Shown here: piece by piece, positions 28,060 through 64,000 of the stretch
Layout of the letters: each line of letters opens with the position of its first letter
How positions within the stretch are numbered: the stretch's first letter is position 1
Assembly (NCBI GenBank): GCA_964557845.1
Contig: CAZLBV010000215.1
Coordinates: 3,582 to 67,581 of the forward strand
DNA from: an uncultured Eubacteriales bacterium
GTDB lineage: Bacteria > Acidobacteriota > Aminicenantia > Aminicenantales > Aminicenantaceae
DNA length: 64,000 bases
Direction: 5' to 3'
Notes under the pieces: model-generated
What the model saw: the letters and a program-made list of their open reading frames with translations, nothing else
What the model was told of the DNA's origin: nothing
Databases searched by the model: none
Made by a program: the position numbers and the translations under genes

Positions 28060-28629
28060 TTATTCAATGACTGTAAATTCCCACGCACAATAGACATCCG
28101 GAGGATGAGGATCAGGAGGGCAGGTTATACATCTGGTCTGTATTCTGGGATCGATGGTGCGGGCAAAACCGCTGTACTCAACGACCCCTACAGGCTTGCA
28201 GGGAAAATCCGGTAATCCCTTTCTTTTCCTAGCATCCTGGACCCTGCACTTGTTCATCCGGAAAACACAACTGTTTTTCTGGATGTCGATGACCTCCTGG
28301 ACGTTGATATGGGCATAGAGCCTGAATTTTAAAGCTTGAATTAAAGCAGGTATACCACCCCCTGGCTGGATATTAAGACGATTCATGATCCTTTTGGCTT
28401 CAATGACGGTAAAATCCTCCCAGGCTGTTTTGTCCAACTCCATCGCTGTTTCCATCCCGAATTTTTTTTCTGCAGCCTGAAACCATAATCCGTCATGGGC
28501 CAACCAGTTTTTAGCGGCGTCTTTAAGAAGTTCCCTTAATTCCTCCTTGGACATATCTTGGATTTCTTTCATTATTTCTCCTATGACCTGATTTTTATTG
28601 TTTACAGAAGTTCTTTCAGACCGGTTCAT
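28060..28629 (-). CDS. hypothetical cysteine-rich protein, co-transcribed with a radical SAM gene
   Basis: 189-aa ORF whose start overlaps the radical SAM gene end by 14 nt. The C-terminus is Cys/Pro-rich (CRVQDARKRKGLPDFPCKPVG...RCITCPPDPHPPDVYCAWEF). I recognise no family. Confidence 0.35.
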   Translation of the reverse strand: MNRSERTSVNNKNQVIGEIMKEIQDMSKEELRELLKDAAKNWLAHDGLWFQAAEKKFGMETAMELDKTAWEDFTVIEAKRIMNRLNIQPGGGIPALIQALKFRLYAHINVQEVIDIQKNSCVFRMNKCRVQDARKRKGLPDFPCKPVGVVEYSGFARTIDPRIQTRCITCPPDPHPPDVYCAWEFTVIE

Positions 28630-29563
28630 AATATTTTAGATTTTTATATATAACGATTTTTATTTTATTTTCTTGCAGGAGAGAATTCAATTCTTTTAGG
28701 ACCGCGTTTCTATGTTTCCCAAGGGATGAGGAAATATCTTCAAGAGTGACAGGCCTCCTTTTTACCATATCAAGAATTTGGCTGGCTATATTTTCCTGAT
28801 AAGGAGGCTGGTCTCCACCCTGGAATTCTGCGATGATTTCTGCTTTATCACCGAGAAATTTTTGAATTTCTTCTAACCGTGACCTGCTTATCGGTTGAGC
28901 TGTAATTTCAGCAGGTGGGCGAACTACCGTATTGAGATGGATTTTGTCCGGGCGGATTTTTTCTATGACTTTTTTTAATTTTAACAGATGAGTATGTGAG
29001 TCATTGACATTTTTGACAAAAAGGATCTCGAGCCATATTTTACCATTGTATTGCTTTCTGAATTCAATCAAACCTGATAAGATCTCTTTAAGTTCAAGTT
29101 TAGGGTGAGGGCGGTTAATCTGTAAAAATACATCCTGAGAGGCCGCATCCAATGAAGGAACGACCAGGTCTGCCTTCTTTAAGTCCTGCCTGACTTCTTC
29201 TTGAGAAAGGAGAGTACTGTTAGTTAAAACAGCAACCGGAATATCAGTAAATGCTTTGATATTAGTTATCAATTCTCCAATTATTTTATTGAGAGTGGGT
29301 TCTCCTGAACCTGAAAAAGTAATGTAGTCGATATGGTGCCCAGTTTCGATGGCTTTCTTTATGCCAGCTAGAATTTCTTTTATAGAAAAGTATTTTTTTC
29401 TTTCTACAGTCTTTTTAGGGGTCGTCCCCAACTGGCAGTAGATGCAATCCAAACTGCAGGTTTTATATGGCAAGATATCTATTCCTAAAGAATAACCTAA
29501 CCTGCGTGAAGGTACTGGTCCATAAATGAATGTCTTTAGGTTTTTATTTTTAATTTTAGTCAC
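28616..29563 (-). CDS. radical SAM enzyme (CxxxCxxC) of a subfamily with an N-terminal YGPVPSRRLG motif and a C-terminal winged-helix-like tail; function unknown
   Basis: 315 aa with the radical SAM cluster motif CSLDCIYC after GPVPSRRLGYSLGIDI. A paralog with the same architecture lies at 59993-60943. Confidence 0.8.
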   Translation of the reverse strand: MTKIKNKNLKTFIYGPVPSRRLGYSLGIDILPYKTCSLDCIYCQLGTTPKKTVERKKYFSIKEILAGIKKAIETGHHIDYITFSGSGEPTLNKIIGELITNIKAFTDIPVAVLTNSTLLSQEEVRQDLKKADLVVPSLDAASQDVFLQINRPHPKLELKEILSGLIEFRKQYNGKIWLEILFVKNVNDSHTHLLKLKKVIEKIRPDKIHLNTVVRPPAEITAQPISRSRLEEIQKFLGDKAEIIAEFQGGDQPPYQENIASQILDMVKRRPVTLEDISSSLGKHRNAVLKELNSLLQENKIKIVIYKNLKYYEPV

Positions 29564-29645: not shown

Positions 29646-30116
29646 TTAAATTTTTCTGTATTGTTTTTTCCAGGGTGATTTCTTTTGATAGAGATAATCA
29701 GCCAAAGCCCGGCGTAGTGTTTCCGATGCCAATTGAGCGCAGTGGATGTTTTCTTCGGGAAGCCCTCCCAGCTCTTTCAAAATAACATCGGCACTGATGG
29801 AGGCAAGAGCCTGGTTGAAGGTTTTGTCTCTTGAGAGTTCCGAAACCACACTTCCACAAGCCAAAGTAGCTCCACAACCATCGGTAAGAAAAGTGCATTT
29901 GCTTATTCTGTCATCCTGAAATTTTAAAAAAATTTCCATAGTATCTCCACAGGATCCAGTTACCTTTGCATATCCATCAGGCTGCTCCAGTTTTCCCAGA
30001 TTAAGAGGATGGAGCCACAGATTGATAACCTTATCGGTATAGATCTGTCTGGCTTGCTCCATGATCTGCTCCTGAAGCTGCTGCGTTATTTTTTCTAATT
30101 CCTCGTCTTTATCCAT
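29646..30116 (-). CDS. IscU/NifU-N-like Fe-S cluster scaffold protein
   Basis: 156 aa with the three scaffold cysteines in conserved contexts: GSCGDTMEIFL, TDGCGATLACGS and HCAQLASE. Confidence 0.8.
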   Translation of the reverse strand: MDKDEELEKITQQLQEQIMEQARQIYTDKVINLWLHPLNLGKLEQPDGYAKVTGSCGDTMEIFLKFQDDRISKCTFLTDGCGATLACGSVVSELSRDKTFNQALASISADVILKELGGLPEENIHCAQLASETLRRALADYLYQKKSPWKKQYRKI

Positions 30117-30180: not shown

Positions 30181-30283
30181 GGCGAGTCGATCTTGGCCCA
30201 TTTACTGCATTGCGGCGGGTTCGCAGTGGACAATCACAGCTTCACCCGCTGGCGCCTTGTAACTGGACCAATCTCGACTCGTG
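30181..30283. ncRNA. candidate structured RNA or small palindromic element: ~103-nt GC-rich segment closed by an ~18-bp imperfect terminal stem
   Basis: GGCGAGTCGATCTTGGCC (30181-30198) is the reverse complement of GGACCAATCTCGACTCG (30265-30281), with 2 mismatches and 1 wobble. The interior contains nested complementarity (GCGGCGGG / CCCGCTGGCGC). GC is about 58% against an AT-rich surround. It sits between the IscU-like start (30116) and the DUF4405-like gene end (30409) and is preceded by an AT-rich 9-bp-stem hairpin at 30134-30180. Confidence 0.3.
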
Positions 30284-30408: not shown

Positions 30409-31281
30409 TTACTTTTTTTGTCTCTTTTGCAACTCAGCGGTTATAAAATCCCTCAATTCTTGTATAGAGAATCCATAACTCTTTCTTAATCTGCCCAGGT
30501 GGTCAAACTCTGAAACATTTGCAGGCAATCCCATTCCCTGGATAATGGTTTTTGTGTTTATTCCGGTTTTTAATTCTATGTCTCTTAAACACATCTGCCC
30601 TGTGATCACAATGCCGGATGTATCTTCCTCCAGCCTTCCATGAACGAGCTTATCTTCATGTTCCTGGGTTTCTTCGTGAAGGTGGACAGCTGGATAACTC
30701 TCAGATTTCACCTCAATTTCTTTTTCTGGTTTCTGCTGGTTATTGGCTGCTCCAGATAAAGACTTTTCCGAGCTCTTACCAGGTACGGATGCTTTTTTTT
30801 GCTGTTCGATAATCGAAGGGGCAGGAGAAGGCACCGGGGCAGGGATCGAAGTCGCAGCCGGCACACTTTGCTCAACAATTCTGGACCTCCCAAATTCTCC
30901 GTTTCTTCTTCCATAGTTGGAATACAAAGGAGAGTCCTTAGGCATGAATGCCCAGATAAAAAAAATGGTAAAAAAAGCAGCTGCTACGGTAAGGCCGATA
31001 ATTAGAGGGGCCTTATTTTTAAATAGACGGCGTGACTGCGCTTTAATCCAGCTCCATTCAAGGATCAGATGAATAATGACTAATGCTGTGAATGCTAGGG
31101 ACAAAATTAGATGAATGTCGCCCCATTGATGCCGGTGCAGACCTAAAAAATATTTTCCCTGGTCATTGACTGTCGGTCCTTCTGCGAGAAAGAAAGCCAT
31201 CAGTATTCCTATAACTGCTATTCCAAAAAGAAATATGAAAAGAAAAGTATCTACCAGATATTTCCATATGTTTTTATTCAT
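30409..31281 (-). CDS. membrane protein with an N-terminal DUF4405-like His-rich transmembrane domain and a C-terminal soluble domain
   Basis: 290 aa with three TM helices and conserved histidines (HRHQWGDIHLILSLAFTALVIIHLILEW), typical of DUF4405 putative haem/cytochrome-b-like modules. A Pro/Ser-rich linker follows, then a C-terminal domain of unknown family. Confidence 0.45.
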   Translation of the reverse strand: MNKNIWKYLVDTFLFIFLFGIAVIGILMAFFLAEGPTVNDQGKYFLGLHRHQWGDIHLILSLAFTALVIIHLILEWSWIKAQSRRLFKNKAPLIIGLTVAAAFFTIFFIWAFMPKDSPLYSNYGRRNGEFGRSRIVEQSVPAATSIPAPVPSPAPSIIEQQKKASVPGKSSEKSLSGAANNQQKPEKEIEVKSESYPAVHLHEETQEHEDKLVHGRLEEDTSGIVITGQMCLRDIELKTGINTKTIIQGMGLPANVSEFDHLGRLRKSYGFSIQELRDFITAELQKRQKK

Positions 31282-31313: not shown

Positions 31314-32186
31314 TTAATTATCCACATTTTTTAGATTAAGCCAAATTTCTTTTATCTCATTGGCAAGGTCAGAATTAGGAAGTTCTGGAATAGGGATGCC
31401 TTGAGTGACAGCTTTAATCGCATCTTCTGAATAGGAGATTTTTCCTAAAATTTTGATGTTGTTTTTTTGACACCAAGTAATGATTCCGTGTGTGTTTTGC
31501 TTATTTATGTCGTATTTATTGATAATACAGGCAGTTTTGATTTTAAAATATTTGGATGTCTCGATAACTCTTTCCATATCATGGACCGCAGAAAGAGTGG
31601 GCTCAGTGACCACAACCGCTAAATCAACTCCGGAAAGAGAAGCGATGACTGGGCAGCCTATTCCGGGAGGCCCGTCGATAAGGACCCAATCCAAATTGCC
31701 CGACTCTGCGATCTCTCTGGCTTTTTCTCTAACCAGTGAAACAAGTTTTCCGGAATTTTCTTCCCCGGGATACAGCCGGGCATGAACAAAGGGGCCGTAT
31801 TTTGTTTGAGAAATATACCATTCTCCGCAAACCGCAGGTTTCATTTCGATCGCCTGTACAGGACAAGATAAGGCACAAACTCTGCATCCTTCGCATGAAA
31901 AAGGATCTATAGAAATTTTTCCTTCATCGGAAGAGTGAATGGCATCGAACCGGCATAAACTCACACAAGCACCGCAGTATGTGCATTTTTCTTCATTGTA
32001 AACGGCTTTTTCTCCGCTTGTAAATGTGTGTGTTTCTTTGATCTCAGGATGGATCATTAAATGCAGATTGGCTGCATCAACATCACAGTCAGCGAGTACT
32101 TTCTTTTCTGCAAGGGAGGCAAAGGCAGCGGTCACAATTGTTTTCCCAGTTCCGCCTTTTCCGCTGATAACAACTATTTGCTTCAC
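31314..32186 (-). CDS. MinD/ParA-superfamily P-loop ATPase with inserted 2x[4Fe-4S] ferredoxin domain (CooC-like, COG1149-type)
   Basis: 290 aa with a deviant Walker A (GKGGTGKT) and two CxxCxxCxxxCP motifs (CTYCGACVSLC, CEGCRVCALSCP) inserted in the ATPase fold. Confidence 0.75.
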   Translation of the reverse strand: MKQIVVISGKGGTGKTIVTAAFASLAEKKVLADCDVDAANLHLMIHPEIKETHTFTSGEKAVYNEEKCTYCGACVSLCRFDAIHSSDEGKISIDPFSCEGCRVCALSCPVQAIEMKPAVCGEWYISQTKYGPFVHARLYPGEENSGKLVSLVREKAREIAESGNLDWVLIDGPPGIGCPVIASLSGVDLAVVVTEPTLSAVHDMERVIETSKYFKIKTACIINKYDINKQNTHGIITWCQKNNIKILGKISYSEDAIKAVTQGIPIPELPNSDLANEIKEIWLNLKNVDN

Positions 32187-32217
32187 TTCTTTTCCTTATT
32201 TTAAATATTATCGAGAT

Positions 32218-33099
32218 TCATCTCTTGGTTAGATTGTCGGTCTGAATTTTAATCTTGTATTTTAAGCTGTCATAGAGTTCTGAGAATTTGGTCTTAAAAC
32301 TTGGATCTATATCAATCAAGGCTTCTCCTTTAGAGTAAGCTTCTGCTATTTTTCTGTCCAATGGAATTTCCATGATTAAGGGAATGTTTTCCTTCTGACA
32401 GTATTCATGAATGATCTCATCACCTGTTCTTGCCCGGTTTAAGATCACACTAAAGGGAATGCCCATTTGCCTGAGAGTATCAACTGAGAGCTTGAGATCA
32501 TTTAAACCAAAAGGAGTCGGTTCTGTGACAAGAAGGGTGTGATCGCTGCCCTTAACTGTTTCGACCATAGGACATGATGTGCCGGGTGGAACATCCAGGA
32601 TCACATCTTGTTCGTGGTCGATCATTTTTTTCATCTGCCGGATCAACGGAGGAGACATTGCCTGGCCCACATCCAATTTTCCTGATAGAAAAAATATGTT
32701 TCCGGCATGACCTGATTTGATCACTCCGATTCTTTTGCCAATTTCTTTTATTGCGTTTTCAGGACAGAAAAGTTTACATGCCCCGCAGCCATGGCAGAGT
32801 TCAGGAAAGGTAAGAACGCTTTCTTTGAGTACGGCCAAGGCATTATAAGCACAGACTTCAGCACAGCGCCTGCAGTAGGTGCATTTATTATCATCAATTT
32901 CAGGAATAGGCAGGTAAGAGATTTTTTCTTTCTCAAATTCTGCTTTTATGAAAAAATGGGCATTTGGTCCTTCTACATCACAATCTAAAAATTGCAGCTT
33001 CTGATCTGCTGAAATGGAAAGAGCTATATTTACAGCAACCGTTGTTTTACCCGTTCCTCCTTTACCGCTGGCAATGGAAAGGATCATTAAATACTCCAA
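32218..33099 (-). CDS. MinD/ParA-superfamily P-loop ATPase with inserted 2x[4Fe-4S] ferredoxin domain (paralog)
   Basis: 293 aa with GKGGTGKTT, CTYCRRCAEVC and CHGCGACKLFCP. It is the tandem paralog of the downstream gene. Confidence 0.75.
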   Translation of the reverse strand: MEYLMILSIASGKGGTGKTTVAVNIALSISADQKLQFLDCDVEGPNAHFFIKAEFEKEKISYLPIPEIDDNKCTYCRRCAEVCAYNALAVLKESVLTFPELCHGCGACKLFCPENAIKEIGKRIGVIKSGHAGNIFFLSGKLDVGQAMSPPLIRQMKKMIDHEQDVILDVPPGTSCPMVETVKGSDHTLLVTEPTPFGLNDLKLSVDTLRQMGIPFSVILNRARTGDEIIHEYCQKENIPLIMEIPLDRKIAEAYSKGEALIDIDPSFKTKFSELYDSLKYKIKIQTDNLTKR

Positions 33100-33800
33100 A
33101 CGCTTCCGGCGCCGAGTTCAAGAAAATCATCCTTATACTCTTCTTTAAAGAGAGTTCGGGCTTCTAGTCCCGAGCAATGGGTCGGCCCCACTTTTTCTAT
33201 TCCCTCTCTTTTAAATAAACGAATGATCTCTTTGATCTCTCGGTCTTCAAATCCACCTAAATGGAATCCCCCAAAGACCATATAAATATTTTTCTGGAAT
33301 TGTTTTTTAGTAAGATCGATTATGTTTGTGATCCGTGGGTGGGCGCATCCAGTTATAAGAATCAAACCTTTATTGGTTTCTAAAATCAGGGATTGCTCTT
33401 TTATCCATCCGTTTATGACGCCGGTTGTAAAGGCTCCAGGTGATAGGTTTTGAGGGCCAGTGATGTAAACCGGGCAGCTTCTGGCATCAGTAACGGCTTT
33501 TTTTATTTTATTTGGAAAAAAATCAGGAATAAATACAGTTACATCGGAGTTTACTGCCAAGAATCCCTCTAAACCCCCTGTGTGATCGAAGTGTTCATGA
33601 GAGAGAAATATTTGATCTACCATTCCAGGCGATTTTCCCAACTTGTTTATATTATCCAGCAAGATTTTATGTTTTGCCCCGGTGTCGAAGAGTATGGTTT
33701 TTTCCATTCCTTGGATCAGGCAGGAAAACCCCCAATCTGTAGCGAATTCTGTTTTATAAGCAATATTGTCATAGAGAATTGAGAAGGTTAATGGAGACAT
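33087..33800 (-). CDS. MBL-fold metallo-hydrolase
   Basis: 237 aa with the HxHxDH motif (LSHEHFDHTGG) and later His/Asp ligands (GCAHP, GGFHLGG). Confidence 0.7.
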   Translation of the reverse strand: MSPLTFSILYDNIAYKTEFATDWGFSCLIQGMEKTILFDTGAKHKILLDNINKLGKSPGMVDQIFLSHEHFDHTGGLEGFLAVNSDVTVFIPDFFPNKIKKAVTDARSCPVYITGPQNLSPGAFTTGVINGWIKEQSLILETNKGLILITGCAHPRITNIIDLTKKQFQKNIYMVFGGFHLGGFEDREIKEIIRLFKREGIEKVGPTHCSGLEARTLFKEEYKDDFLELGAGSVWSI

Positions 33801-33857
33801 CTCTTATTGGCCTTAAAATTCTGATTAGATTTAATATGATAATTATTTATTCAACTC

Positions 33858-35060
33858 TCATTCAACAACAGCTAGGGCCTGCTCCAGGTCTGCCTCAAGA
33901 TCTTCATATCCTTCACAACCCACTGAGATGCGGATCAGATCATCTGTTATCCCTGCTTCCAATTTATCTTTCCTCGAGACATTTGCATGAGTCATACTAG
34001 CCGGATGTTGGATAAGGGTTTCAATTCCTCCCAGGGAAACCGCAAGGGTACATAATTTAACTGAGTCGATGAATTTTCTACCGGCATCTAACCCGCCTTT
34101 CAAGCCAAAACTGATAAGAGCACCGAAACCACGCATTTGTTTTTTTGCCAGTTTGTGTTGGGGATGGCTTTCCAAACCAGGATAGTTTACCCAGGCTATT
34201 TTTGGATGATTCTCAAGATAAGTGGCCAGTTTCATGGCATTATCCTGGGATTTCTCTACCCTGAGTGCTAAGGATTTTACTCCCCGTAAGACCAACCATG
34301 CTTGATGCGGGTCCATGTTACCACCCAGAAGGGAGAGAGCTGACCTGAGTTTATTATAAAGTTCTTCGTTTTTGGGAATAATTATTCCGCCTACTATATC
34401 TGAATGGCCGTTGATAAATTTAGTAACACTGTGGTAAACAATATCGGCGCCCAATTCCAGGGGATTTTGAAGATGTGGGCTGGCAAAAGTATTGTCAACC
34501 ACCAGCAGAAGGCCTTTAGAATGGGCTAGCTTTGCACAAGCCTCGATATCTGAAATAATCATGGTTGGATTAGCTGGAGTCTCGATAACAATAAGTTTAG
34601 TATTTGTTTTAATAGCGGATTCAATTTTTTTTGTATCCGAGGTATCCACATAATCGAAACTGATGCCGAATTTGTACGCTAATTTTTCAACCAGGACTCG
34701 AGAAGCCCCATAAACAGAAGCTGTGCTTATCATGTGTGAATTTTGTTCTAATAGACCAAAAAGCAGTGTAGATAGAGCGGACATCCCTGATGAGGTAGCC
34801 ATGGCCCCGTAGCCCTGTTCTAAATAGGCTATATTGTCCTCCAAGGCTCTTATTGTGGGATTACCCATTCTGGTATAGATATATCCTTCTTCTTCTCCGG
34901 CAAACCGGGCTGCGCCCTGCCGGGCATTTTTAAATGCAAAGGTAGACGATTGATAAATGGGTGTCGATACACCCCCAAATACTGGGTCTGGATGTTGAGC
35001 GGCATGGATAACACTGGTATGCCTGCTTTTCATTTTAATATCAGTCACATTTTCCTCCAT
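33858..35060 (-). CDS. Cys/Met-metabolism PLP enzyme (methionine gamma-lyase / cystathionine gamma-synthase / O-acetylhomoserine sulfhydrylase family)
   Basis: 400 aa with PLP-lysine in SVTKFINGHSD and trans-sulfuration-family motifs. The real start is possibly the internal Met at ~35033 (MKSRHTSVIH). Confidence 0.8.
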   Translation of the reverse strand: MEENVTDIKMKSRHTSVIHAAQHPDPVFGGVSTPIYQSSTFAFKNARQGAARFAGEEEGYIYTRMGNPTIRALEDNIAYLEQGYGAMATSSGMSALSTLLFGLLEQNSHMISTASVYGASRVLVEKLAYKFGISFDYVDTSDTKKIESAIKTNTKLIVIETPANPTMIISDIEACAKLAHSKGLLLVVDNTFASPHLQNPLELGADIVYHSVTKFINGHSDIVGGIIIPKNEELYNKLRSALSLLGGNMDPHQAWLVLRGVKSLALRVEKSQDNAMKLATYLENHPKIAWVNYPGLESHPQHKLAKKQMRGFGALISFGLKGGLDAGRKFIDSVKLCTLAVSLGGIETLIQHPASMTHANVSRKDKLEAGITDDLIRISVGCEGYEDLEADLEQALAVVE

Positions 35061-35211
35061 AAAATTTAACTAAGCGATATTAATAAATATAATAATTTCT
35101 GGCTTAAGAGATATTATAATACCGTTTTTAATCTCTGCGGCAGGATCTTTTGTCGAAACATATTTAGAAAATTCCACCACAGTTTTGGCATTCGTATCTG
35201 CAGATAGGAAG

Positions 35212-35397
35212 CTACCTTCCCCGGATCATCTTGGAACCGCATTTAGGGCAGGTTAATTCAAAACAGGGTTTTCCAGGTTGATGAGAAATTTTGTGTCCGC
35301 ATTTAGGGCACACACATGAACCGCCTGGCCCAAGCCCCTGTCCTCCGCCTAATCCTCTACCTCCTTGCCCATTAGGATCTCCGTTCGAATTGGACAT
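35212..35397 (-). CDS. small Gly-rich zinc-ribbon protein
   Basis: 61 aa with a Gly-rich N-terminus (GQGGRGLGGGQGLGPGG) and two CPKCG knuckles (CVCPKCGH...CPKCGS). Its position inside the conserved island supports it being real. Confidence 0.45.
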   Translation of the reverse strand: MSNSNGDPNGQGGRGLGGGQGLGPGGSCVCPKCGHKISHQPGKPCFELTCPKCGSKMIRGR

Positions 35398-35412
35398 GAT
35401 TTTCTCCTCTTT

Positions 35413-35853
35413 TCAGTTATAGGCTTCCATTATCTTTTTGTCTTCATTCATGAGATAATCCAGTTCTTTTCTGAATTTATCATCCCAAAAATTAAGCTTG
35501 TTATGAATTTCAAGATATTTCAGGGGAATAGGATGGGTTCCAATAACAACAGGGACTCCGTACTGAGTTTCAATGTATTCTTTGAATTGAAATAGATAGG
35601 GACAAGGTGGGTACCCGACCACCAAACCAGTGGCCAGATGAATGACTTCTGCGCCATTTTTTATCATTTCTTCTGGAACATATTCAATATTCCCCCCCGG
35701 GCATCCCCCGCAATAGGAATATCCTACGACCTCTATTTCTTCATCTTTTGGATAACGAGCAAAACCTCCGGTCCGTTCCCGGACGGAACGGAAGCATTTC
35801 CCGCCACCGCATAACTGATAGCGTCCACATATTATGATGCCGATTTTTTTCAT
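35413..35853 (-). CDS. CGGC-domain protein
   Basis: 146 aa with MKKIGIIICGRY...CGGGKC and YCGGCPGG. I recall these as the CGGC-domain family signature. Confidence 0.55.
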   Translation of the reverse strand: MKKIGIIICGRYQLCGGGKCFRSVRERTGGFARYPKDEEIEVVGYSYCGGCPGGNIEYVPEEMIKNGAEVIHLATGLVVGYPPCPYLFQFKEYIETQYGVPVVIGTHPIPLKYLEIHNKLNFWDDKFRKELDYLMNEDKKIMEAYN

Positions 35854-35874
35854 TTTATTTCCTATTATTATTAA

Positions 35875-36681
35875 TTAATTTTTTCCGGTAGATTCCAAGA
35901 TCCTTTCAGCGACTTCGAGAAAAGCCTTGGCTGTTTCTGACTCGGCAGTATCTTCTAAGAACGATTTGCCAATGTCGCCGAGGATTACGATCTGAGGATC
36001 AATGGGAATTCTTCCCAGAAAAGGAACACCCAATTCGCCAGCGGCTGTTTCGCCTCCGCCCTGTTTAAAAAGGTCGATCTTTTTACCACAATGGGGGCAG
36101 GTCAATCCGCTCATGTTTTCTATGATTCCATACACCTGTAAATTCAATTTGCGGGCAAAGGCGACTGCCTTTCTTGAATCCATAAGAGAAACCTCTTGTG
36201 GGGTTGTAACCACAACTGCGCCGCTAGCAGGAATCAACTGGGCTACTGAAAGAGGTTCATCTCCTGTGCCTGGAGGCGAGTCGATAATCAGCCAATCAAG
36301 GTTTCCCCAATCAACGTCTCCAAGAAACTGCTGGATGGCTTTCATCTTCATAGGCCCCCGCCAAATTACGGGGAGATCAGGGCTTTCGAGTAAAAAAGCC
36401 ATAGATACGAGCTTTAAATTCTTATCCACCTGAACAGGTTTAATTCCGTTAGGTGAAACATCAAGCCGTTTCGTCTCAACGCCCAGCATTTTTGCCAGGT
36501 TGGGCCCATGAATATCTACGTCTAATAATCCAACTTCTAATCCTTTTTTTTCAAAGGCATAAGCGAGGTTGGCAGCTACTGTGCTTTTCCCAACTCCTCC
36601 TTTTCCACTGAAAACAAGAAGTCGGTTTTTGATTTTTTCTAAAGCTTTCTTGATTTTTTCTGATTCATTTTCGTTTGGCAT
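35875..36681 (-). CDS. Mrp/NBP35/ApbC-family Fe-S cluster carrier ATPase
   Basis: 268 aa with Walker [18 protein letters not shown] and the conserved CPHCG cluster-binding motif. Its ATG overlaps the stop of the upstream NifX-like gene (ATGA-type overlap at 36679-36683). Confidence 0.85.
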
Positions 36682-37400
36682 TATTCTTCTCTTTCCATGA
36701 AGTTTTCAAGGACATCTTTTACCTTTCCTGAGACTCCTGTGATCATTTTAATTCCGGATTCCTGCAACACTTTATCTGCATTGGGTCCAAAGTCTCCGGT
36801 CATAACAAGTGATGGATTTTTTTCGGCAATAAATTGGGCTGCTTTAATTCCAGCGCCATGAGCAGTATCTATATATGGATTGGAGATCGCTTCAACCTGA
36901 TCTGAACCAGGTGTCAAAAATAAGAAATATTGGGCTCTTCCGAATTTCGGATCAACCTCGGAATCAATGGTGTTTCCCAGTGCAGTAATACATATCTTTG
37001 TACGGGTATCATGAGACAGGGATTGATGTTCGTGATGTTTAGGATGTCCTTGATTCATATGGCGTTCGCTCCCGTGATCGCAAAGGTCTTCTCCAGGTTT
37101 CAGTTGGCCTAGCCTATATTTTTCGATAACTTCGTCGATCGGGCCTTGGACACCTATGATCGTTTGAATATTCTTTTTTCTAAACAATTCCTGGGCACGG
37201 GGGCCCATCCCACCGGTAATGATGAGATTGACCCCTCGCGCACTTAAAAATTCTGGTAGAAACCCTGGTTGGTGACCCGGATTATCAATTTCTTCTTTTT
37301 GGGAGATCCGGTTATCTTCTATGTCAACTATTGTATACTTCGAACACCGCCCAAAATGGGCGGCAACAAAACCATTCTCTGTAGAGACTGCAATTTTCAT
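36681..37400 (-). CDS. tandem fusion of two dinitrogenase FeMo-cofactor-binding (NifX/NafY/NifB-C-like) domains joined by a His-rich linker
   Basis: 239 aa. Domain 1 starts [29 protein letters not shown]. The His-rich linker reads [18 protein letters not shown]. Domain 2 starts [27 protein letters not shown]. Confidence 0.7.
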
Positions 37401-37460
37401 TCAAACCTCTTTATCATGATTCAGGGTATACTTTTTATCTTAGAAATTCAACATCAATAT

Positions 37461-37805
37461 TTATTTTGCTTTTTCTTCTTTTTCAATTTTACTGATTCTT
37501 TCTGAGAGATCTTTTAGCTCCTTTTCCATTAGGTCTTTTTCCTGTTTCAAATATCCGAGTTCTTCTTCTTGTGACATCGAAGGGGCACCTGCTCCATAGG
37601 GGTACCCTGGATAACCATAACCATAGCCATAAGGATTATATCCTCCCATTGGGTATCCCCAACCGTAACCTCTTCCGTATCCGCGTCCAAATCCGTATGA
37701 CATATAACCCGGGTAAGTATATCCTGCGCAAAATCCTCTTGCACGGCCTGTCATAGATCCGAAGCCCCAAGGTCCTGTTCTATCGCCTCCTGGCATTTTC
37801 TTCAC
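37461..37805 (-). CDS. small Gly/Tyr-rich low-complexity protein with a C-terminal coiled coil (DUF5320-like)
   Basis: 114 aa. MPGGDRTGPWGFGSMTGRARGFCAGY is followed by GYG/YGY low-complexity repeats and then EEELGYLKQEKDLMEKELKDLSERISKIEKE. This matches my recollection of the DUF5320 architecture, which is commonly adjacent to NifX-like/Mrp genes. Confidence 0.5.
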   Translation of the reverse strand: MKKMPGGDRTGPWGFGSMTGRARGFCAGYTYPGYMSYGFGRGYGRGYGWGYPMGGYNPYGYGYGYPGYPYGAGAPSMSQEEELGYLKQEKDLMEKELKDLSERISKIEKEEKAK

Positions 37806-37810
37806 CTCCT

Positions 37811-38257
37811 TTATTGGCAGTTTTTACATAGACCGATAAATTCAATATTATGGTCCAATATCTTAAAAGAAAATTTAGCTTCCAATTTTTTTTCTGCTTT
37901 ATTGATAAATTCTAATTCTTCTTCAACGAATTCTCTGTAATCAATTATTTTGCCGCAGTTGGAACAGATCAAATGGTGATGATGATCAGATTTTTTTCCT
38001 GATCTGAATTCATATCTATTCTGTCCATCACCGATAGAAATTGTTTGTATCATTCCTGTTCGAGACAGTAAATCTAGTGTCCGGTATACTGTGGTAAGCC
38101 CCAGGCCAGGATAGATTTTTATCAATTCGCTATAGATGTCCTTGGCACTTAAATGCTTATTTGTCCGGATGAGCAGATCTACGATCGCCTGACGGGGTGC
38201 TGTCCACCTGCATACCTGTCCTCTGAACCGATGATGCCATTTGTTTGCTTTATACAA
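37811..38257 (-). CDS. fur: Fur-family metalloregulator (Fur/Zur/PerR)
   Basis: 148 aa with an N-terminal winged helix, HHHHLIC-x-CG and a C-terminal CxxC (LCKNCQ). Confidence 0.8.
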   Translation of the reverse strand: MYKANKWHHRFRGQVCRWTAPRQAIVDLLIRTNKHLSAKDIYSELIKIYPGLGLTTVYRTLDLLSRTGMIQTISIGDGQNRYEFRSGKKSDHHHHLICSNCGKIIDYREFVEEELEFINKAEKKLEAKFSFKILDHNIEFIGLCKNCQ

Positions 38258-38272
38258 TTTAATCTTTCCTTT

Positions 38273-38294
38273 TGATAATGAAAACCATTATCAT
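38273..38294. promoter_or_regulatory. Fur box-like operator (TGATAATGAAAACCATTATCAT) in the fur/queF divergent promoter region
   Basis: About 16 of 19 positions match the classical GATAATGATAATCATTATC palindrome. It lies 16-37 nt upstream of the fur start codon (38257, minus strand). Confidence 0.55.
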
Positions 38295-38488
38295 TAACAA
38301 ATTACCTTAGGTACACTTATTTGTCAAGTTATAATTTTACCCAAACCCCTATTTACTTGTTTTATTTCCAATCTGCAAATTTTCATTTAAAATAATATCC
38401 TGGATCAGGATCATATAGTTGAAGGTAAAATCCACCTGTTGTAAAAGATTGTCTTCATCCTTGGGTTATTATATACTTTTCAAAAGGA

Positions 38489-38899
38489 TTGAAAATGAAA
38501 GAATACGGAGAAAAAGAGGCAAAAGCAGGTCTGAGAGATGAACTGCCCTCCTTAGCGACTTTTCCCAACCAGTTTTCTGATTATGAAATAAAAATTGAAA
38601 TTCCTGAATTCACATCTATCTGCCCGAAAACAGGGCTTCCTGATTTTGGAAAACTGACTATCCAATACATACCGATCGATCTGTGTCTTGAGTTAAAATC
38701 GTTAAAAATGTATATCCTTGCTTATAGAAATCTTGGTATATTTTACGAAAATGCAGTCAACCGGATACTGGAGGATATTGTTTCGGCCTGTAAGCCCGCC
38801 CAAGCAATTGTTACAGGAGAATTCACACCCAGGGGGGGGATAAGATCCATAATTGTGGTTCATTATCCCCGAAAAAAAACATTAAAAGAGAATAATTGA
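38489..38899 (+). CDS. queF: NADPH-dependent 7-cyano-7-deazaguanine (preQ0) reductase, type I
   Basis: 136 aa with EFTSICPKTGLPDFGKL (catalytic Cys) and the QueF motif region KSLKMYILAYRN. Confidence 0.85.
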   Translation: MKMKEYGEKEAKAGLRDELPSLATFPNQFSDYEIKIEIPEFTSICPKTGLPDFGKLTIQYIPIDLCLELKSLKMYILAYRNLGIFYENAVNRILEDIVSACKPAQAIVTGEFTPRGGIRSIIVVHYPRKKTLKENN

Positions 38900-47217: not shown

Positions 47218-47751
47218 TCACATTATCAATATGAATTATTATGGATTACTTATAAAAAATATTATATTAGCAATTTTAGGTATTTTTCACAATTCTTGTC
47301 AACCAAATGTCAAACAAAGTCCCTGCGTTGTCATGCTTTGTTTTGTCTTATTTTGTCAATTTTTTGATCGGTGGATGCATGATTTTAATTTAGTTAATGA
47401 ATAATGCTTTTTTTAGGTATCCTACAAATACTTTAAAAAATTTATACATGGAAGAATTTCAGGGATTTGGCTTCAATAGAAAGCCTGGCAAGTACTGCAA
47501 GTGTAGCAAAACGCAGCAATGTTCCACCAAGCATAGAAATACTGCTCCATTTAACTCCGGAGATGGTTTTAGATTTCAGATCAACGGCCATTATAGTATT
47601 AGATGAGTGTTTCCGTATATTGCTGGTGATCGAGAAGCATGGCTGTTAATAATAACAATGGTGTTTAAAAATCCTTCTGGATTATATTTCAGTTGAAAGA
47701 CATCCCAATTATTTAATTTATTATTATATAGGACAGGGATAATAACTCTCA

Positions 47752-48903
47752 TTATCCCTTTAATATGTCCTTAACAGCTTCAATCACTTCTTCAACAACA
47801 TCATCGGTTAACTTCGGAGAAAGAGGAATGGAGACGGTTCTCTCAGAGATCCATTCCGCGTTGGGAAAGTCACCAGATCGGTAGCCATAGACTTTTTGAT
47901 AATAAGGATGAAGATGGGGGGCGATATAGTGAACGCCGGTGCCTACATTTTTTCGGTGCATTTTATCCAGAAATTGGTCCCGGCTCATATTCATCCGCTC
48001 GATATCTAGGATTAAAGTATACAGATGATACGCATGCCGGGTGCCTGACTCTGCAGGTGCTGGTGTAAAAACAGGGAGGTCTTGAAATGCATAGTTGTAT
48101 TTTTCCCATATCTGTTTCCGTCTTTCCCAATATTTTTCAACTCTCGGTAACTGATGTATACCGAGGGCTGCCTGAATATCCATCATGTTATTCTTAAAGC
48201 CCGCACAAACAACTTGATAGTGTTTATAGCCCTCATCGCTGAAGCGTTTCCAAGCATCTTTCGACATGCCATGGAGGGCTAGAACCTTTATTTGATCAGC
48301 GTAATCCTCCTTGTTGGTGATAATCATTCCTTCTTCACCTGTAATAATGTTTTTAGTGACATAAAAACTGAAACAGCCCAGATCGCCGAAAGTTCCGGTC
48401 TTTTTTCCATGATACTCACTTTCGATGGCATGAGCGCAATCTTCGATGACTTTAAGCTTTTTTTAGCAGCAATTTCCACGATCTTATCCATTTCGCAGGG
48501 CCTGCCGGCAAAATGAACCGGGATGATGGCTTTGGTTTTAGATTAGATCTTTTTCATGATGTTGTCAGGCTCTATATTCATGGTCTGTTGGTTACAGTCG
48601 GCCAGGACAGGTTTACCTCCGGCGTGGATAACAGCATTGGCTGTGGATGCAAAGGTCACAGCTGGAATGATTATTTCGTCTCCTGGTCGAAGCCCTATGG
48701 CTAGCATGGAAAGATGGAGGGCAGCTGTGCAGGAGTTTACAGCCAGGGCAAAACAGGTCCCTTTATACTGTTGAACATCTCTTCGAATCGATGCACTTTC
48801 GGGTCGGTCCCCAACCATCCGGAACGAAGAGAGAATCAACTACTTCATCGATCTCCGCCTGTTCGATCAAAGGGCTTCCGAAAACGAGGAAATTATCGCG
48901 CAT
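47752..48903 (-). pseudogene. decayed DegT/DnrJ/EryC1/StrS-family sugar aminotransferase (ArnB/WecE-like): at least 3 frameshifts plus 1 in-frame stop
   Basis: Reverse-strand translation from ATG (complement of 48901-48903) gives MRDNFLVFGSPLIEQAEIDEVVDSL. The canonical continuation RSGWLGTDPKVHRFEEMFNS is found only in a second frame, after an extra CT in a TCTCTC repeat near 48825-48835. YKGTCFALAVNSCTAALH...PGDEIIIPAVTF...MKKI is in a third frame, after a T-run deletion. An in-frame TAA lies at the complement of 48543-48545. A further frameshift lies in a poly-A(7) tract at the complement of 48458-48464, where AAKK-SLKSS should read AAKKKLKVIEDCAHAIE. The C-terminal part (47752-48327) is intact. 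Confidence 0.75.
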
Positions 48904-53675: not shown

Positions 53676-54548
53676 ATGTTGAAAAACAATAAGACAGAAA
53701 AAAAGGTCAAAGCAGCACAAAAGCGTGAAATAACAGAGCATTTGATCTATCGGAAACTATCAAGAACAATTAAGGATGCTCATAATCGTGAGATTTTATT
53801 AAGGATCTCGGATGATGAGCTGAAGCATTACAACCTGCTCAAAGATTATACCAAACGGGAAATGAAACCTAATCGAATACAGTTATGGCTGTATTACCTT
53901 CTTTCCAAGGTCTTTGGTTTGACTTTTGGAATCAAGCTGATGGAACGGGGCGAGGAGACGGCCCAGGTTATCTATCGTGATCTGGCGAGTTCCTTTCCCA
54001 GGGCTTTTGACATTGCAAAAGAAGAAGATGAGCACGAAGAACAGCTTATCCGGACGTTTGATGAGAAGAGGCTTGATTACATAGGTTCTATGATAAGGGG
54101 ACTTAACGATGCTTTAGTGGAGCTTACCGGTGCTCTTGCCGGTTTTACCCTGGCACTTCAGGATCCCCGTCTGATCGCTATGGCAGGGCTAATTACAGGG
54201 ATTGCCGCATCCATGTCCATGGGCGGTACCGAATATTTGGCGAAAAGATACGAAAAAAGCGATCAACACCCGATAAAGTCAGGTATATATACAGGAGTAG
54301 CTTATATTTTTACTGTTCTTTTGTTAGTCCTCCCTTATATTTTATTGGGCAATATTTATATCTCGCTGGGGATTATGGTATTTGTGGCAATCGTTATTAT
54401 TATAATATTTAGTTTTTATATATCTGTGGCTAAGGATCTCTCTTTTTGGAAACGCTTTTTAGAAATGGCCGGATTGAGTCTTGGAATAGCTGCATTATCA
54501 TTTGTTATCGGTTATATCGCAAGGAAGATCTTGGGAGTGGGTCTATAA
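53676..54548 (+). CDS. membrane-bound ferritin-like / VIT1-CCC1 fusion (MbfA-like Fe/Mn exporter)
   Basis: 290 aa. The N-terminus is a ferritin/erythrin-like helix pair with ExxH-type ligands (EITEHLIY, ELKHYNLL, EEDEHEEQL). The C-terminal VIT1/CCC1 membrane domain carries MIRGLNDALVELTGALAG and ITGIAASMSMGGTEYLA. Confidence 0.7.
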   Translation: MLKNNKTEKKVKAAQKREITEHLIYRKLSRTIKDAHNREILLRISDDELKHYNLLKDYTKREMKPNRIQLWLYYLLSKVFGLTFGIKLMERGEETAQVIYRDLASSFPRAFDIAKEEDEHEEQLIRTFDEKRLDYIGSMIRGLNDALVELTGALAGFTLALQDPRLIAMAGLITGIAASMSMGGTEYLAKRYEKSDQHPIKSGIYTGVAYIFTVLLLVLPYILLGNIYISLGIMVFVAIVIIIIFSFYISVAKDLSFWKRFLEMAGLSLGIAALSFVIGYIARKILGVGL

Positions 54549-54806
54549 ATGAACTAGCCTGAACTATTCATAAAAAATGCCGATGGTAATGATGATCTTG
54601 ATAAAAAATCCAGTTTTACAGGAATTTGTCTTATTCCACTAAACTTTTCAACAAGTCCGGTAATTTTAGAAAACGACGAGTTAAGTGCATTGAAGAGGAG
54701 TTTAATACATTTTGTGAAGAGTAGAGTATAGGTAAAAATGGTATAATTCTTGATTGTATTGTCATAAGATCTAGACAAAAATGATACTCGGCATCGATTT
54801 ACAATT

Positions 54807-55370
54807 TTGGAGGTTATCATGGAACCCATAGGTCCATTGATGTGGGAGCATAGGACTATCGAACGTGCTGTTAAACTGTTGGAAAAAGAATTGGAAAAGA
54901 TCCAGAAAACAGGAAAAAGCGATCATGAATTTTTAAATATGATCGTTGATTTTTTTCGGATCTATGCTGATAGAACCCACCACGGGAAAGAAGAGGATAT
55001 TTTATTTAAGGCTCTCAATTCTAAATCTTTATCCAGAGAACACAAAAAGATCATGGATGAGTTAATAGAAGAACATAAGAAAGGAAGAAAACTGACTAAC
55101 GAGCTTAAAAAGTGGGATGAATCCCATGGGGAGGATTCATCCGAGGATATAGATAAAGTGACCGATGCATTAAAGGAGCTTCTTCAACTGTATCCTCAGC
55201 ATATCGAGAAAGAAGACAAACATTTTTTCTTCCCAATAATGGATTATTTTTCAAAACAGGAAAGAGAGGACATGCTTGAGAAATTTTATGAATTTGACAG
55301 GCAGTTGATTCATGAAAAATATAAAAAGTTGATCGATGAATGGGAAGATATTTTAAGGACCAGCGATTAA
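54807..55370 (+). CDS. hemerythrin-like (HHE cation-binding) domain protein
   Basis: 187 aa with three H/E-containing helices (WEHRTIERA, RTHHGKEEDILFKAL, EKEDKHFFFPIM) typical of the hemerythrin HHE domain. Confidence 0.7.
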   Translation: MEVIMEPIGPLMWEHRTIERAVKLLEKELEKIQKTGKSDHEFLNMIVDFFRIYADRTHHGKEEDILFKALNSKSLSREHKKIMDELIEEHKKGRKLTNELKKWDESHGEDSSEDIDKVTDALKELLQLYPQHIEKEDKHFFFPIMDYFSKQEREDMLEKFYEFDRQLIHEKYKKLIDEWEDILRTSD

Positions 55371-55382
55371 GGAGGTTTAAAT

Positions 55383-56132
55383 ATGCTGGAGCTCAGAAAT
55401 TTTAGCGTGTCTATTGGAGAAAAGGAAATTGTTCATGATGTTAATATTACCATCAAAAGTGGAGAAACTCATACGCTGTTTGGACCTAACGGCAGTGGGA
55501 AGACCACTCTTCTTATGGCTATCATGGGATTTCCCAAGTATAAAGTGAATAAAGGTTCTATTTTATTTGATGGTAAAGATATTTCAGATTTATCTTTAGA
55601 TGAGCGAGCTCGCTTAGGTATAGGAATGTCATTCCAGAGGCCCCCTGTCGTCAAGGGAGTAAAAACTCGGGATATGGTTGCAGCATCCCTTGGGGATAAA
55701 CAGGAAGAAGCCGATAAAATTATTCTCGGACTGGCTGAAAAGGCTGATCTTGTGGATTTCCTTGATAGAGAGGTTAATTACGGTTTTTCCGGAGGAGAGA
55801 TAAAACGGTCCGAGCTCCTTCAGCTTCTGGCGCAAAAACCTAAGCTAGTTTTGCTTGATGAGCCTGAATCAGGAGTCGATCTAGTAAATATAGCCTTAAT
55901 CGGCAAACTTATTGATGAACTTCTGGAAAAAAACTGCCGTATCGTCGAGAGGAAATGCAGCGGTCTTATCATTACCCATACCGGTCATATCCTTGACTTT
56001 GTCAATGCCCGTACCGGTTATGTCATGTGTGATGGGCGGATAGGCTGTGAAGGGAATCCCCTTGAAATCCTTAAGACTATTAAGGAGAAAGGTTATGAGG
56101 AATGTATCAGATGCATGGTAAGGAGAAGATGA
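55383..56132 (+). CDS. sufC: Fe-S cluster assembly ATPase SufC
   Basis: 249 aa with Walker A GPNGSGKTTL, signature FSGGEIKRSELLQLL, Walker B LVLLDEPESGVD and D-loop/H-loop ITH. Confidence 0.9.
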   Translation: MLELRNFSVSIGEKEIVHDVNITIKSGETHTLFGPNGSGKTTLLMAIMGFPKYKVNKGSILFDGKDISDLSLDERARLGIGMSFQRPPVVKGVKTRDMVAASLGDKQEEADKIILGLAEKADLVDFLDREVNYGFSGGEIKRSELLQLLAQKPKLVLLDEPESGVDLVNIALIGKLIDELLEKNCRIVERKCSGLIITHTGHILDFVNARTGYVMCDGRIGCEGNPLEILKTIKEKGYEECIRCMVRRR

Positions 56133-56133
56133 A

Positions 56134-63220: not shown

Positions 63221-64000
63221 TTATGAGAACCCTAATAACTTTCCAACCTGATAAACAACGAAGGTTATAACACTGGCCATAGATAGGGACACGAGTAAGC
63301 TCATCAGCAGCCATTTAATACTTCTGGTTTCCTTCCAGGTTGCCCATACAGTGACAAGGCATGGCAGATAGAGCATATAGAAGGTTAGAAAAGAAAAAGC
63401 CGTTAGGGGTGTAATGGTTTGCACCAGATAATTCATAATGGTATGGGAATCTGCCAGAGTCGTTTGTAAACCATATGTCATGGCTAGAGATGAGACAACG
63501 ATTTCCTTGGCAGGGAGGGTAAAAATAAGCGCTGTGAGCATTTCCCCGCTGAGGCCGAAGGGCTGCCCAAATGGGTGTAGAAGGCTGACCATATGGCCAA
63601 CTGCGGTTTGCTCAAAAGCAGAATCGGGCGGGAGATTGCCCATAATCCAGATGATGATCATGGCAGGAGCAGCGATCATTACGGCCCTGCCGATAGTGTG
63701 CCCAACCTGGTGGATCAATGAACGCCGGATGACCTGCCCCCATTTGGGTTTCCGGTAAGGGGGAAGTTCCATTACGAATCCGCCCGGTTCCCGTTTAAAA
63801 AAAATTCGGTTTAAGATCAGTGTCGCCAGAAGCATAGCCCCAATACTTATAGCCAGGAAAGTCAATGTAACCGCCAAGGCATGATCTTTGAAGAAAAGGA
63901 TGATAAGAGCCAATCCTGCTCCGAATCTCCCGTTACACAGTATAAGCGGACTTGTGATAACAGCAATGATGCGGTCTTTAGCATTTTCAATAATACGGCA
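63221..64000 (-). CDS. feoB: ferrous iron transporter FeoB, C-terminal membrane-domain fragment (5' part beyond window edge)
   Basis: The reverse-strand frame is open from 64000 to the stop at 63221-63223. It contains the FeoB hallmark MELPPYRKPKW and gate-motif-like membrane helices. Confidence 0.65.
   Translation of the reverse strand, partial: CRIIENAKDRIIAVITSPLILCNGRFGAGLALIILFFKDHALAVTLTFLAISIGAMLLATLILNRIFFKREPGGFVMELPPYRKPKWGQVIRRSLIHQVGHTIGRAVMIAAPAMIIIWIMGNLPPDSAFEQTAVGHMVSLLHPFGQPFGLSGEMLTALIFTLPAKEIVVSSLAMTYGLQTTLADSHTIMNYLVQTITPLTAFSFLTFYMLYLPCLVTVWATWKETRSIKWLLMSLLVSLSMASVITFVVYQVGKLLGFS

Follow-up and report, generated by a model that had tools for sequence, protein, structure and literature searches.

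The orange protein complex (ORP) is an anaerobe-specific system encoded by orp3-orp4-orp5, orpR and orp7-orp8-orp9 (PMC6345978, PMC8359166), which has been studied since 2011 without an agreed role, the proposals being cell division, iron-sulfur (Fe-S) maturation and Mo-Cu binding. In Desulfovibrio the carrier MrpORP has a [3Fe-4S] cluster in its Di-Nase domain and a bridging [4Fe-4S] cluster on a CXXC motif, and can hand the latter over to Orp3/Orp4 in vitro; ORP proteins co-purify (PMC6345978). The orange protein isolated from D. gigas carried a Mo-Cu cluster (cited in PMC6345978), and morphological defects of an orpR mutant and polar localization of MrpORP have been reported (PMC6345978, PMC8359166). 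IssA (SipA) of P. furiosus joins a Di-Nase domain to a tail that is cationic and rich in glycine and aromatic residues, and it binds and stores thioferrate (PMC5524996). Here we describe a ten-gene cluster on the minus strand of a 64,000-nt stretch of contig CAZLBV010000215.1 (assembly GCA_964557845.1), called the window below, in whose positions all features are given. We read the cluster, with a probability of roughly 60%, as a Fur-controlled variant of the ORP-type operon in a Candidatus Aminicenantes bacterium, acting as an iron-responsive module for holding and delivering Fe-S clusters.

The ten genes form one row of minus-strand open reading frames (ORFs; 31314-38257 in the ORF list), in which eight junctions measure between -13 and +60 bp and one, from a zinc-ribbon (ZnR) gene to a gene for a methionine gamma-lyase-type enzyme (MGL), measures 151 bp. 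Scans of the row with Pfam and NCBIfam profiles bore out the domains that the original prediction, an earlier annotation of this DNA, had assigned to ten co-oriented genes, together with the Fe-S handling character of the set. The IscU-like scaffold and radical SAM gene that it had placed downstream were recovered as well, the genes found there by Pfam being those for DUF4405, NifU_N (PF01592), radical SAM (PF04055) and DUF6125 proteins. Gene callers set some starts a few codons later, giving 396 aa for MGL and 111 aa for the DUF5320 protein, whose true start is probably the ATG at 37796.

The combination of NifX-like, Mrp, ferredoxin-MinD and DUF5320 genes had been thought to recur in anaerobes without an assigned pathway, and it proved to be the published Desulfovibrio ORP cluster, several parts of which are biochemically characterized (PMC6345978, PMC8359166). 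For comparison we used the orp loci of Oleidesulfovibrio alaskensis G20 (L084) and Nitratidesulfovibrio liaohensis (L086, with a D. vulgaris-like divergent layout), and the sequences of DVU2109, Dde_3202 and a Thermodesulfobium homologue were rebuilt from the supplementary alignment of PMC6345978. Judged by sequence, every protein type of the Desulfovibrio ORP system appears to be represented in the window. By its protein set the locus is a member of the ORP family, and it lacks two features of the archetype, the fusion of Mrp to a Di-Nase domain and control by sigma-54 and OrpR. The resemblance to the systems of D. vulgaris Hildenborough and O. alaskensis G20, likewise anaerobes, extends over Orp3 and Orp4 orthologues, a MrpORP-type Mrp, Di-Nase domains of the orange-protein and MrpORP C-terminal types and a DUF5320 protein that is putatively Orp5-like, and the order DUF5320, Di-Nase, Orp4, Orp3, Mrp is shared with the co-directional G20 cluster.

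The two Di-Nase domains sit in one tandem protein and belong to different types. Domain 1 is of the MrpORP C-terminal type: it is 34-39% identical to the C-terminal domains of DVU2109, Dde_3202 and the Thermodesulfobium (T. narugense) protein (E from 1e-21 to 9e-29), covers positions 265-361 of the NCBIfam MrpORP model, and in the alignment shows, as HFGRC, NPGHQPG and CDH, the three motifs HFG.C, PGH.PG and CDH that were singled out for the MrpORP Di-Nase domain (PMC6345978). Domain 2 (residues 134-236) is of the orange-protein or Orp8 type, with the D. gigas ORP (2WFB) as best solved relative (E=5e-14) and scores of 46.7 bits to the G20 ORP and 40 bits to that of N. liaohensis; the orange protein is thus present, but as one domain of a fusion and not as a separate protein. 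The description of this protein as binding FeMo-co and NifX-like reflects only the name of the Pfam family. FeMo-co carriers such as NifX, NafY and the C-terminal part of NifB share the domain PF02579 with it, but neither NifX nor NafY is found among the solved relatives, the best of which are the D. gigas ORP, MTH1175, TM1290 and PH0822, or among the NCBIfam matches, and the window scans returned no nif genes. Between the domains lies a His-rich linker (7 His in 30 residues) with a counterpart in the His-rich C-terminal tail of the Thermodesulfobium protein (CDHEHGKGHAHKH). A structure model contains two confident Di-Nase domains and predicts that the linker is disordered (pLDDT below 50 for residues 109-132); its pTM of 0.47 indicates no confident packing between the domains, and the model neither supports nor refutes a pseudo-dimer. 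An identical copy of the tandem protein is present on a 159-kb JGI metagenome contig, and its closest named relatives are from metagenome-assembled genomes of Candidatus Aminicenantes (identity up to 90%).

The Mrp protein scored 373.6 bits to the NCBIfam model MrpORP over model positions 1-253 of 365, against 223 bits to ApbC, with the whole-protein score remaining under the MrpORP cut-off of 450. It is 49% identical to DVU2109 over 250 aa and scored 257 and 247 bits to two reference MrpORPs. In contrast to the Desulfovibrio proteins, it has no N-terminal Cys-rich stretch with the MrpORP Cys motif, and the MrpORP Di-Nase half is detached from it and fused to the orange-protein domain, so that both halves of MrpORP are present but unfused, the Di-Nase half being the N-terminal domain of the preceding gene. 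The window also has no separate Orp7-type gene; Orp7 proteins themselves match Nitro_FeMo-Co below threshold.

The paired ATPases with inserted ferredoxin domains, a feature of ORP clusters, are both present. With Orp4 of G20 and N. liaohensis the upstream one reached 231 and 192 bits, its scores to Orp3 being 129 and 94 bits, and the downstream one reached 284 and 264 bits with Orp3 but 94 and 83 bits with Orp4; because each scores best on its own counterpart, the two are one-to-one orthologues of Orp4 and Orp3, and they stand in the same order as orp4-orp3. An alignment of six Orp3 and Orp4 proteins shows ten invariant Cys, eight in the ferredoxin insert, one in DCDV and one in PPG..C. The earlier description of these ATPases as CooC-like holds at the level of the superfamily and fails at that of the family: the best 25 NCBIfam matches listed for each are MinD, MrpORP, ParA and ferredoxin-type models with no CooC among them, and no carbon monoxide dehydrogenase (CODH) is found in the window.

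A further protein that the ORP system may share is the DUF5320 protein, which has a Gly/Tyr/Arg-rich N-terminal part (pI 9.3) and an acidic C-terminal part that looks, by eye, like a coiled coil. Its Desulfovibrio counterpart would be Orp5, since the N. liaohensis Orp5 matches Pfam DUF5320 with E=5e-5 (24.7 bits, cut-off 27) over its first 29 residues, including an MPG..TGP.G motif; a direct phmmer comparison of the window protein with Orp5 gave E=4. In 32 related loci the gene between those for DUF5320 and the tandem Di-Nase protein, which has no equivalent in the window, encodes a Di-Nase domain fused to a DUF5320-like tail (for example L040:9246-9941, L004:6020-6640 and L013:7670-8404). The tail reads PNVPSHFGMG(RGMG)n, continues with a Pro-rich stretch and a coiled-coil-looking end, and has a pI of 10-12. 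These fusions tie DUF5320 functionally to the Di-Nase domains, and they recall IssA, thereby keeping alive a reading as iron-sulfide storage.

The locus differs from the Desulfovibrio clusters in its regulation. Where those have sigma-54, OrpR and IHF, the window has a Fur gene and a Fur box at the head of the cluster, as originally predicted, and no Sigma54_activat protein of the kind expected for OrpR-type control was found among the scanned window ORFs. The best solved relative of the regulator is the Fur protein 9IRE (E=4e-29), the PerR 2FE3 being weaker (E=9e-20), and its recognition helix reads TVYRTL as in 9IRE, against TVYNNL in the aligned PerR. Two CxxC pairs of a Cys4 zinc site are visible in the alignment. 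The gene starts with TTG, and the NCBIfam equivalog scores all lie below their cut-offs and do not certify a subtype within the Fur family.

The operator is a perfect palindrome, TGATAATGgttttCATTATCA, composed of two overlapping 7-1-7 Fur sites of the TGATAAT-N-ATTATCA type and overlapping the putative promoter. Its TGA...TCA ends are, by the standard of the B. subtilis boxes, of the Fur type and not the PerR or Zur type. It is the only zero-mismatch match to the 21-mer in the window; five matches with up to three mismatches were found against 0.79 expected. One of these, the palindrome GGATAATaactctcATTATCC at 47737-47757 (three mismatches), has half-sites resembling those of a Fur box and sits in a spacer of 534 bp that separates a fragment of a DegT-type aminotransferase gene from a polysaccharide-synthesis gene. 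Further Fur boxes, for instance before NifU, MGL or SufCB, were sought with a 7-1-7 search and dismissed, the 12 matches being no excess over the 9.3 expected by chance. Read along the minus strand, the elements follow one another as TTGACA, 17 nt, TAATTT, 5 nt, Fur box, 15 nt and the Fur start, and from a box placed directly after the -10 element Fur would be expected to repress the operon. A consensus scan for promoters and terminators in the operon was uninformative, with counts at or below shuffle levels, and does not list the TTGACA/TAATTT pair because its -10 element is weak. A PerR in place of Fur is given low weight: an Asp after the first CxxC of the window protein, seen by eye in the alignment, is a PerR-like feature, but the Arg of the recognition helix, the type of operator and the overall score all speak for Fur. 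In the divergent direction from the Fur promoter region lies a queF gene (QueF, 38489-38899, plus strand), an arrangement kept in 13 of 38 Aminicenantes-type loci, and some of these loci have, further upstream, genes whose sequences look like QueC, QueD and QueE; the arrangement probably reflects nothing more than synteny.

Both the regulator and the gene order are conserved well beyond this organism, which upholds the earlier expectation of conserved synteny. One genome per GTDB species was scanned with an alignment of the tandem protein, giving 462 relatives, of which the best 80 loci were kept; window proteins were matched to six-frame ORFs of these loci within a flank of up to 10 kb on each side, and frequencies were counted over bacterial loci with enough flank. 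The loci are mostly from Aminicenantes, with others labeled Omnitrophota, Syntrophaceae/Syntrophobacterales, Atribacteria, Latescibacterota, Spirochaetota, Planctomycetia, WOR-3, TA06, Caldisericia and Nitrospiraceae, and three from Methanomicrobiales. In these loci the genes recur in the order Fur, DUF5320, Di-Nase pair, [Mrp, CGGC], zinc ribbon(s), [MGL], [MBL], Orp4-type, Orp3-type, [DUF4405], [Mrp], NifU. A Fur gene heads the cluster in 56 of 57 evaluable bacterial loci, and a Fur box with at most two mismatches adjoins the Fur start in 52 of 55 related loci, compared with 2.5% of random 290-bp windows from the same loci; the conservation of gene and box spans about ten bacterial phyla. 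DUF5320 is present in 57/65 bacterial loci, Mrp in 45/53, the Orp4-type ATPase in 40/48 and ZnR in 40/60, and NifU follows the cluster in 25 of 38 related loci across phyla. All 57 Aminicenantes-type loci have the Di-Nase pair as a fusion, and most other phyla encode it in two adjacent genes. In the methanogen loci (L080, L081 and L083; Methanocalculus, Methanoculleus) only the Di-Nase pair and the Orp4/Orp3-type ATPases were found, with no Fur, DUF5320, Mrp or NifU nearby, and because these archaea keep just those four genes, we suggest that the four are the minimal core of the system.

Around this core the Fur-type clusters add, relative to Desulfovibrio, CGGC, two types of zinc ribbon, MGL, MBL, DUF4405 and NifU proteins; homologues of Fur, CGGC, ZnR, MGL, the window-type MBL, DUF4405 and NifU were not found within 9 kb of the two Desulfovibrio clusters. 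The ORP gene set is already published, and what is new here is the Fur control and the consistent accessories. A literature search found no link between ORP or Di-Nase clusters and Fur, although the founding 2011 study lay outside that search and might mention Fur-family neighbors.

Table 1. Features of the ORP-type cluster and the genes downstream of it, in window positions.
Feature	Positions	Strand	Evidence or remark
Promoter-like pair TTGACA (38327-38322), 17 nt, TAATTT (38304-38299)	38299..38327	-	putative, read from sequence
Fur box TGATAATGGTTTTCATTATCA	38273..38293	read on minus strand, 38293 down to 38273	perfect 21-bp palindrome
Fur-family repressor, 148 aa	37811..38257	-	PF01475 108 bits; helix TVYRTL; CxxC...CxxC zinc site
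DUF5320 protein, putatively Orp5-type	37461..37805	-	PF17253 87 bits
Tandem Di-Nase (Nitro_FeMo-Co) protein, 239 aa	36681..37400	-	two PF02579 domains, 146 bits
Mrp/NBP35 Fe-S carrier ATPase, MrpORP type	35875..36681	-	PF10609 330 bits; GKGGVGKS and CPHC motifs
CGGC-domain protein, 6 Cys	35413..35853	-	PF08821 93 bits
Gly-rich zinc ribbon (ZnR), 61 aa, CxCxxC...CxxC	35212..35397	-	sub-threshold zinc-ribbon matches only
FmdB-type zinc-ribbon gene, decayed remnant (LPICRYECQNCGGIF then stop, start codon lost)	35164..35211	-	in ZnR-MGL spacer
Cys/Met-metabolism PLP enzyme nearest methionine gamma-lyase (MGL)	33858..35060	-	PF01053 (Cys_Met_Meta_PP) 500 bits
MBL-fold hydrolase, TM1679/7DCK type	33087..33800	-	PF00753 44 bits
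Orp4 orthologue, MinD/ParA-type (CbiA/ParA) ATPase, inserted 2x[4Fe-4S] ferredoxin	32218..33099	-	scores to Orp4
Orp3 orthologue, MinD/ParA-type (CbiA/ParA) ATPase, inserted 2x[4Fe-4S] ferredoxin	31314..32186	-	scores to Orp3
DUF4405 membrane protein	30409..31281	-	PF14358 48 bits
NifU/IscU-type Fe-S scaffold	29646..30116	-	PF01592 90 bits; scaffold Cys in GSCGD, DGCG, HCAQ
Radical SAM protein, cluster membership uncertain	28616..29563	-	PF04055 61 bits

The accessory genes differ in how far they extend beyond the Aminicenantes. CGGC occurs in 40/47 Aminicenantes-type loci against 1/16 in other phyla, DUF4405 in 17/31 against 0/9, and MGL, always in the same slot, in 14/40 against 0/15; the MBL hydrolase is found in 28 of 41 related loci at variable positions, so the suggestion that the MBL and C-S lyase genes are peculiar to this locus does not stand. 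MGL scored 475.6 bits to TIGR01328, under its cut-off of 549.7, and its best solved relatives are all methionine gamma-lyases (E of about 1e-137), while the solved relatives of the hydrolase are 7DCK (E=2e-50), 2P4Z and 3H3E. Outside Aminicenantes, ZnR homologues sit directly before the Orp4-type gene, and on account of this position ZnR was considered as an equivalent of Orp5; this idea was dropped after phmmer gave no match (E up to 10) with any of the called orp proteins of Desulfovibrio, while Orp5 matches DUF5320, and no ZnR counterpart turned up among the proteins called in the Desulfovibrio orp clusters. An intact version of the FmdB-type gene, whose remnant lies in the ZnR-MGL spacer, encodes about 85 aa (Zn_ribbon_8, E=1e-13) and is present in 44 of the 80 loci across phyla, mostly directly after ZnR. 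Clustering of the unassigned ORFs of the 80 loci returned this zinc ribbon, a second DUF5320 paralogue, queuosine genes and a methyltransferase as recurring extras.

The NifU-type protein has all three scaffold Cys and scored 104 bits to NifU_clost, under the cut-off. It is separated from DUF4405 by a 292-bp spacer with a repeat element: an imperfect palindrome of about 100 nt and higher GC content, at 30182-30281 on the minus strand, adjoins an AU-rich hairpin, and a 176-nt fold of the spacer reaches -60.8 kcal/mol (z = -6.7). The spacer has no Rfam match. Copies of the palindrome are found at unrelated positions in other Aminicenantes loci (L027, L049, L016 twice, and L009), and because they lie at unrelated places and on both strands we consider it a dispersed REP/MITE-like repeat; a riboswitch or leader RNA before NifU was rejected on the same observations.

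The most likely function of the cluster is that of an iron-responsive complex for Fe-S cluster holding and delivery. Fur, encoded by the first gene, would bind the palindromic box behind the -10 element, and with binding at this promoter-proximal site the whole operon would therefore respond to iron. When expressed, the NifU scaffold and the Mrp carrier may build [4Fe-4S] clusters and pass them to an Orp4/Orp3 heterodimer, and the Di-Nase domains with their Gly/Arg/Tyr-rich DUF5320 partner may hold labile Fe-S species; these steps of transfer and holding are modeled on the in vitro transfer in Desulfovibrio. More speculatively, since no cysteine desulfurase is encoded nearby, MGL might supply sulfide or thiol in place of one in some Aminicenantes.

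Several considerations weigh against this interpretation. The role of ORP is unsettled even in Desulfovibrio, where cell division has been proposed and the orange protein was isolated with a Mo-Cu cluster. Both the sign of regulation and the metal sensed by the window Fur are inferred from sequence alone, and repression in iron-replete cells suits a very iron-rich complex poorly, unless its job is iron economy or mobilization. The link from Orp5 to DUF5320 appears through a sub-threshold match (24.7 against 27 bits) over 29 residues, NifU behind its 292-bp spacer may be transcribed separately, and the loci were gathered with the tandem Di-Nase protein as bait, which makes all the frequencies conditional on that protein.

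Going further, the Fur-headed supercluster could be a distinct and widespread system of anaerobic bacteria for Fe-S biogenesis and mobilization, induced by iron starvation, a functional counterpart of SUF that dispenses with cysteine desulfurase, draws on sulfide (from MGL where present) and on an IssA-like iron-sulfide reservoir of Di-Nase and DUF5320 proteins, and constitutes the physiological role of the ORP complex. We hold this broader proposal tentatively and regard it as doubtful. As in the Fur-repressed suf operon of E. coli, which serves Fe-S assembly when iron is limiting, a single operon with a Fur operator in front encodes ATPases together with an Fe-S scaffold and carrier, implying Fe-S biogenesis that responds to iron, but the window operon has no SufBCD, SufS or SufE and no cysteine desulfurase, and Fur is its first gene; a SufC and SufB-like pair is encoded separately at 55383-57366. 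An operon devoted to storage, in which Di-Nase and DUF5320 proteins would keep iron and sulfide as a thioferrate-like polymer that the ATPases, Mrp and NifU load and unload, is unlikely. The Di-Nase domain (IPR003731) does occur here with a cationic, Gly/aromatic-rich low-complexity segment in an anaerobe handling iron and sulfur, the domain and cationic tail of IssA bind thioferrate (PMC5524996), 32 related loci have a neighboring gene that joins a Di-Nase domain to a DUF5320-like (RGMG)n tail of pI 10-12 on one polypeptide, and Fur control ties the operon to iron. In the window, however, the segment belongs to a separate DUF5320 protein in a multi-ATPase operon and the Di-Nase domains are tail-less, the acidic coiled-coil-looking end of DUF5320 is not described for the IssA tail in PMC5524996, and with a Fur box at its promoter the operon should be shut down in iron-rich cells, whereas a store would require the reverse.

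The original prediction favored a pathway devoted to assembling a complex Fe-S or heterometal cofactor for an unseen client such as a nitrogenase-like enzyme, CODH or hydrogenase, and this we consider distinctly improbable. Scaffold, carrier and ATPases are indeed encoded together, the Di-Nase fold also occurs in NifB, NifX and NafY, themselves carriers of cofactor precursors, and a client might be encoded outside the 64-kb window. That the window holds no nitrogenase, CODH or hydrogenase, as had been noted, agrees with Pfam scans of its long ORFs (a greedy non-overlapping pick of at least 90 aa, four ORFs of 91-98 aa having been left out of the scan), but no metalloenzyme or other client family recurs among the clustered unassigned ORFs of the 80 loci either, within their flanks of up to 10 kb on each side. 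The Di-Nase domains are nearest to ORP-type proteins and not to NifX or NafY, the in vitro cluster recipients of MrpORP in Desulfovibrio are the ORP proteins themselves (PMC6345978), and the methanogens retain only the Di-Nase pair and two ATPases, leaving a heterometal cofactor without support. It is very improbable that the operon buffers or detoxifies thiomolybdate by binding [S2MoS2CuS2MoS2] in its orange-protein domain as in D. gigas, or otherwise handles Mo, W or Cu thiometallates: the nearest solved relative of domain 2 did carry a Mo-Cu cluster when isolated (cited in PMC6345978), but regulator and operator are of the Fur type and not of a molybdate-responsive type, and the scanned window ORFs gave no match to a Pfam family for Mo/W transport or for molybdopterin synthesis. 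The downstream radical SAM protein, which would fit such a role through its weak similarity to MoaA and a tungsten-cofactor maturase, scored about 54 bits, far below the family cut-offs, and its gene is present in only 11 of 36 loci. Equally slim are the chances of a role in cell division or spatial positioning, as first proposed for the Desulfovibrio complex, for which the MinD models among the best NCBIfam matches of both ATPases, the morphology of the orpR mutant and the polar localization of MrpORP (PMC6345978, PMC8359166) could be cited. Neither MinC, MinE nor division genes are found in the cluster or recurring in related loci, Fur control and the neighboring NifU, Mrp and Cys-rich proteins point to metal handling, and the division phenotype may be indirect.

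Elsewhere in the window are genes for oxaloacetate decarboxylase, a 2-oxoacid dehydrogenase set, polysaccharide synthesis and thiamine-related functions. A second iron-related group (53676-57366) comprises a VIT1-rubrerythrin fusion, a hemerythrin, SufC and a SufB/SmsB-like protein, and FeoB is represented by its C-terminal part, encoded at the edge of the window (63221-63913); the 7-1-7 search found no clear Fur box next to either. Also encoded are a NikR-type nickel regulator (4844-5263) and a flavodiiron protein (ODP plus flavodoxin, 2024-3199), and a flavodiiron gene also neighbors the orp cluster of G20.

Outside Desulfovibrio, then, the ORP set is headed by a Fur gene with a canonical Fur box in about ten bacterial phyla and usually lies beside NifU, and its genes are better annotated as ORP-type than as NifX, CooC or MinD. 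The gene fusions link DUF5320, a family common in anaerobes and of unknown function, to Di-Nase domains, suggesting a connection to iron-sulfide storage of the IssA type. The conserved Fur control makes a concrete prediction, iron-responsive expression and binding by Fur, which offers a direct test of the purpose of the ORP complex, and it shifts weight toward a role in iron and Fe-S homeostasis. Should the interpretation as a SUF-like, Fur-headed supercluster hold true, this would be the long-sought physiological role of the complex.

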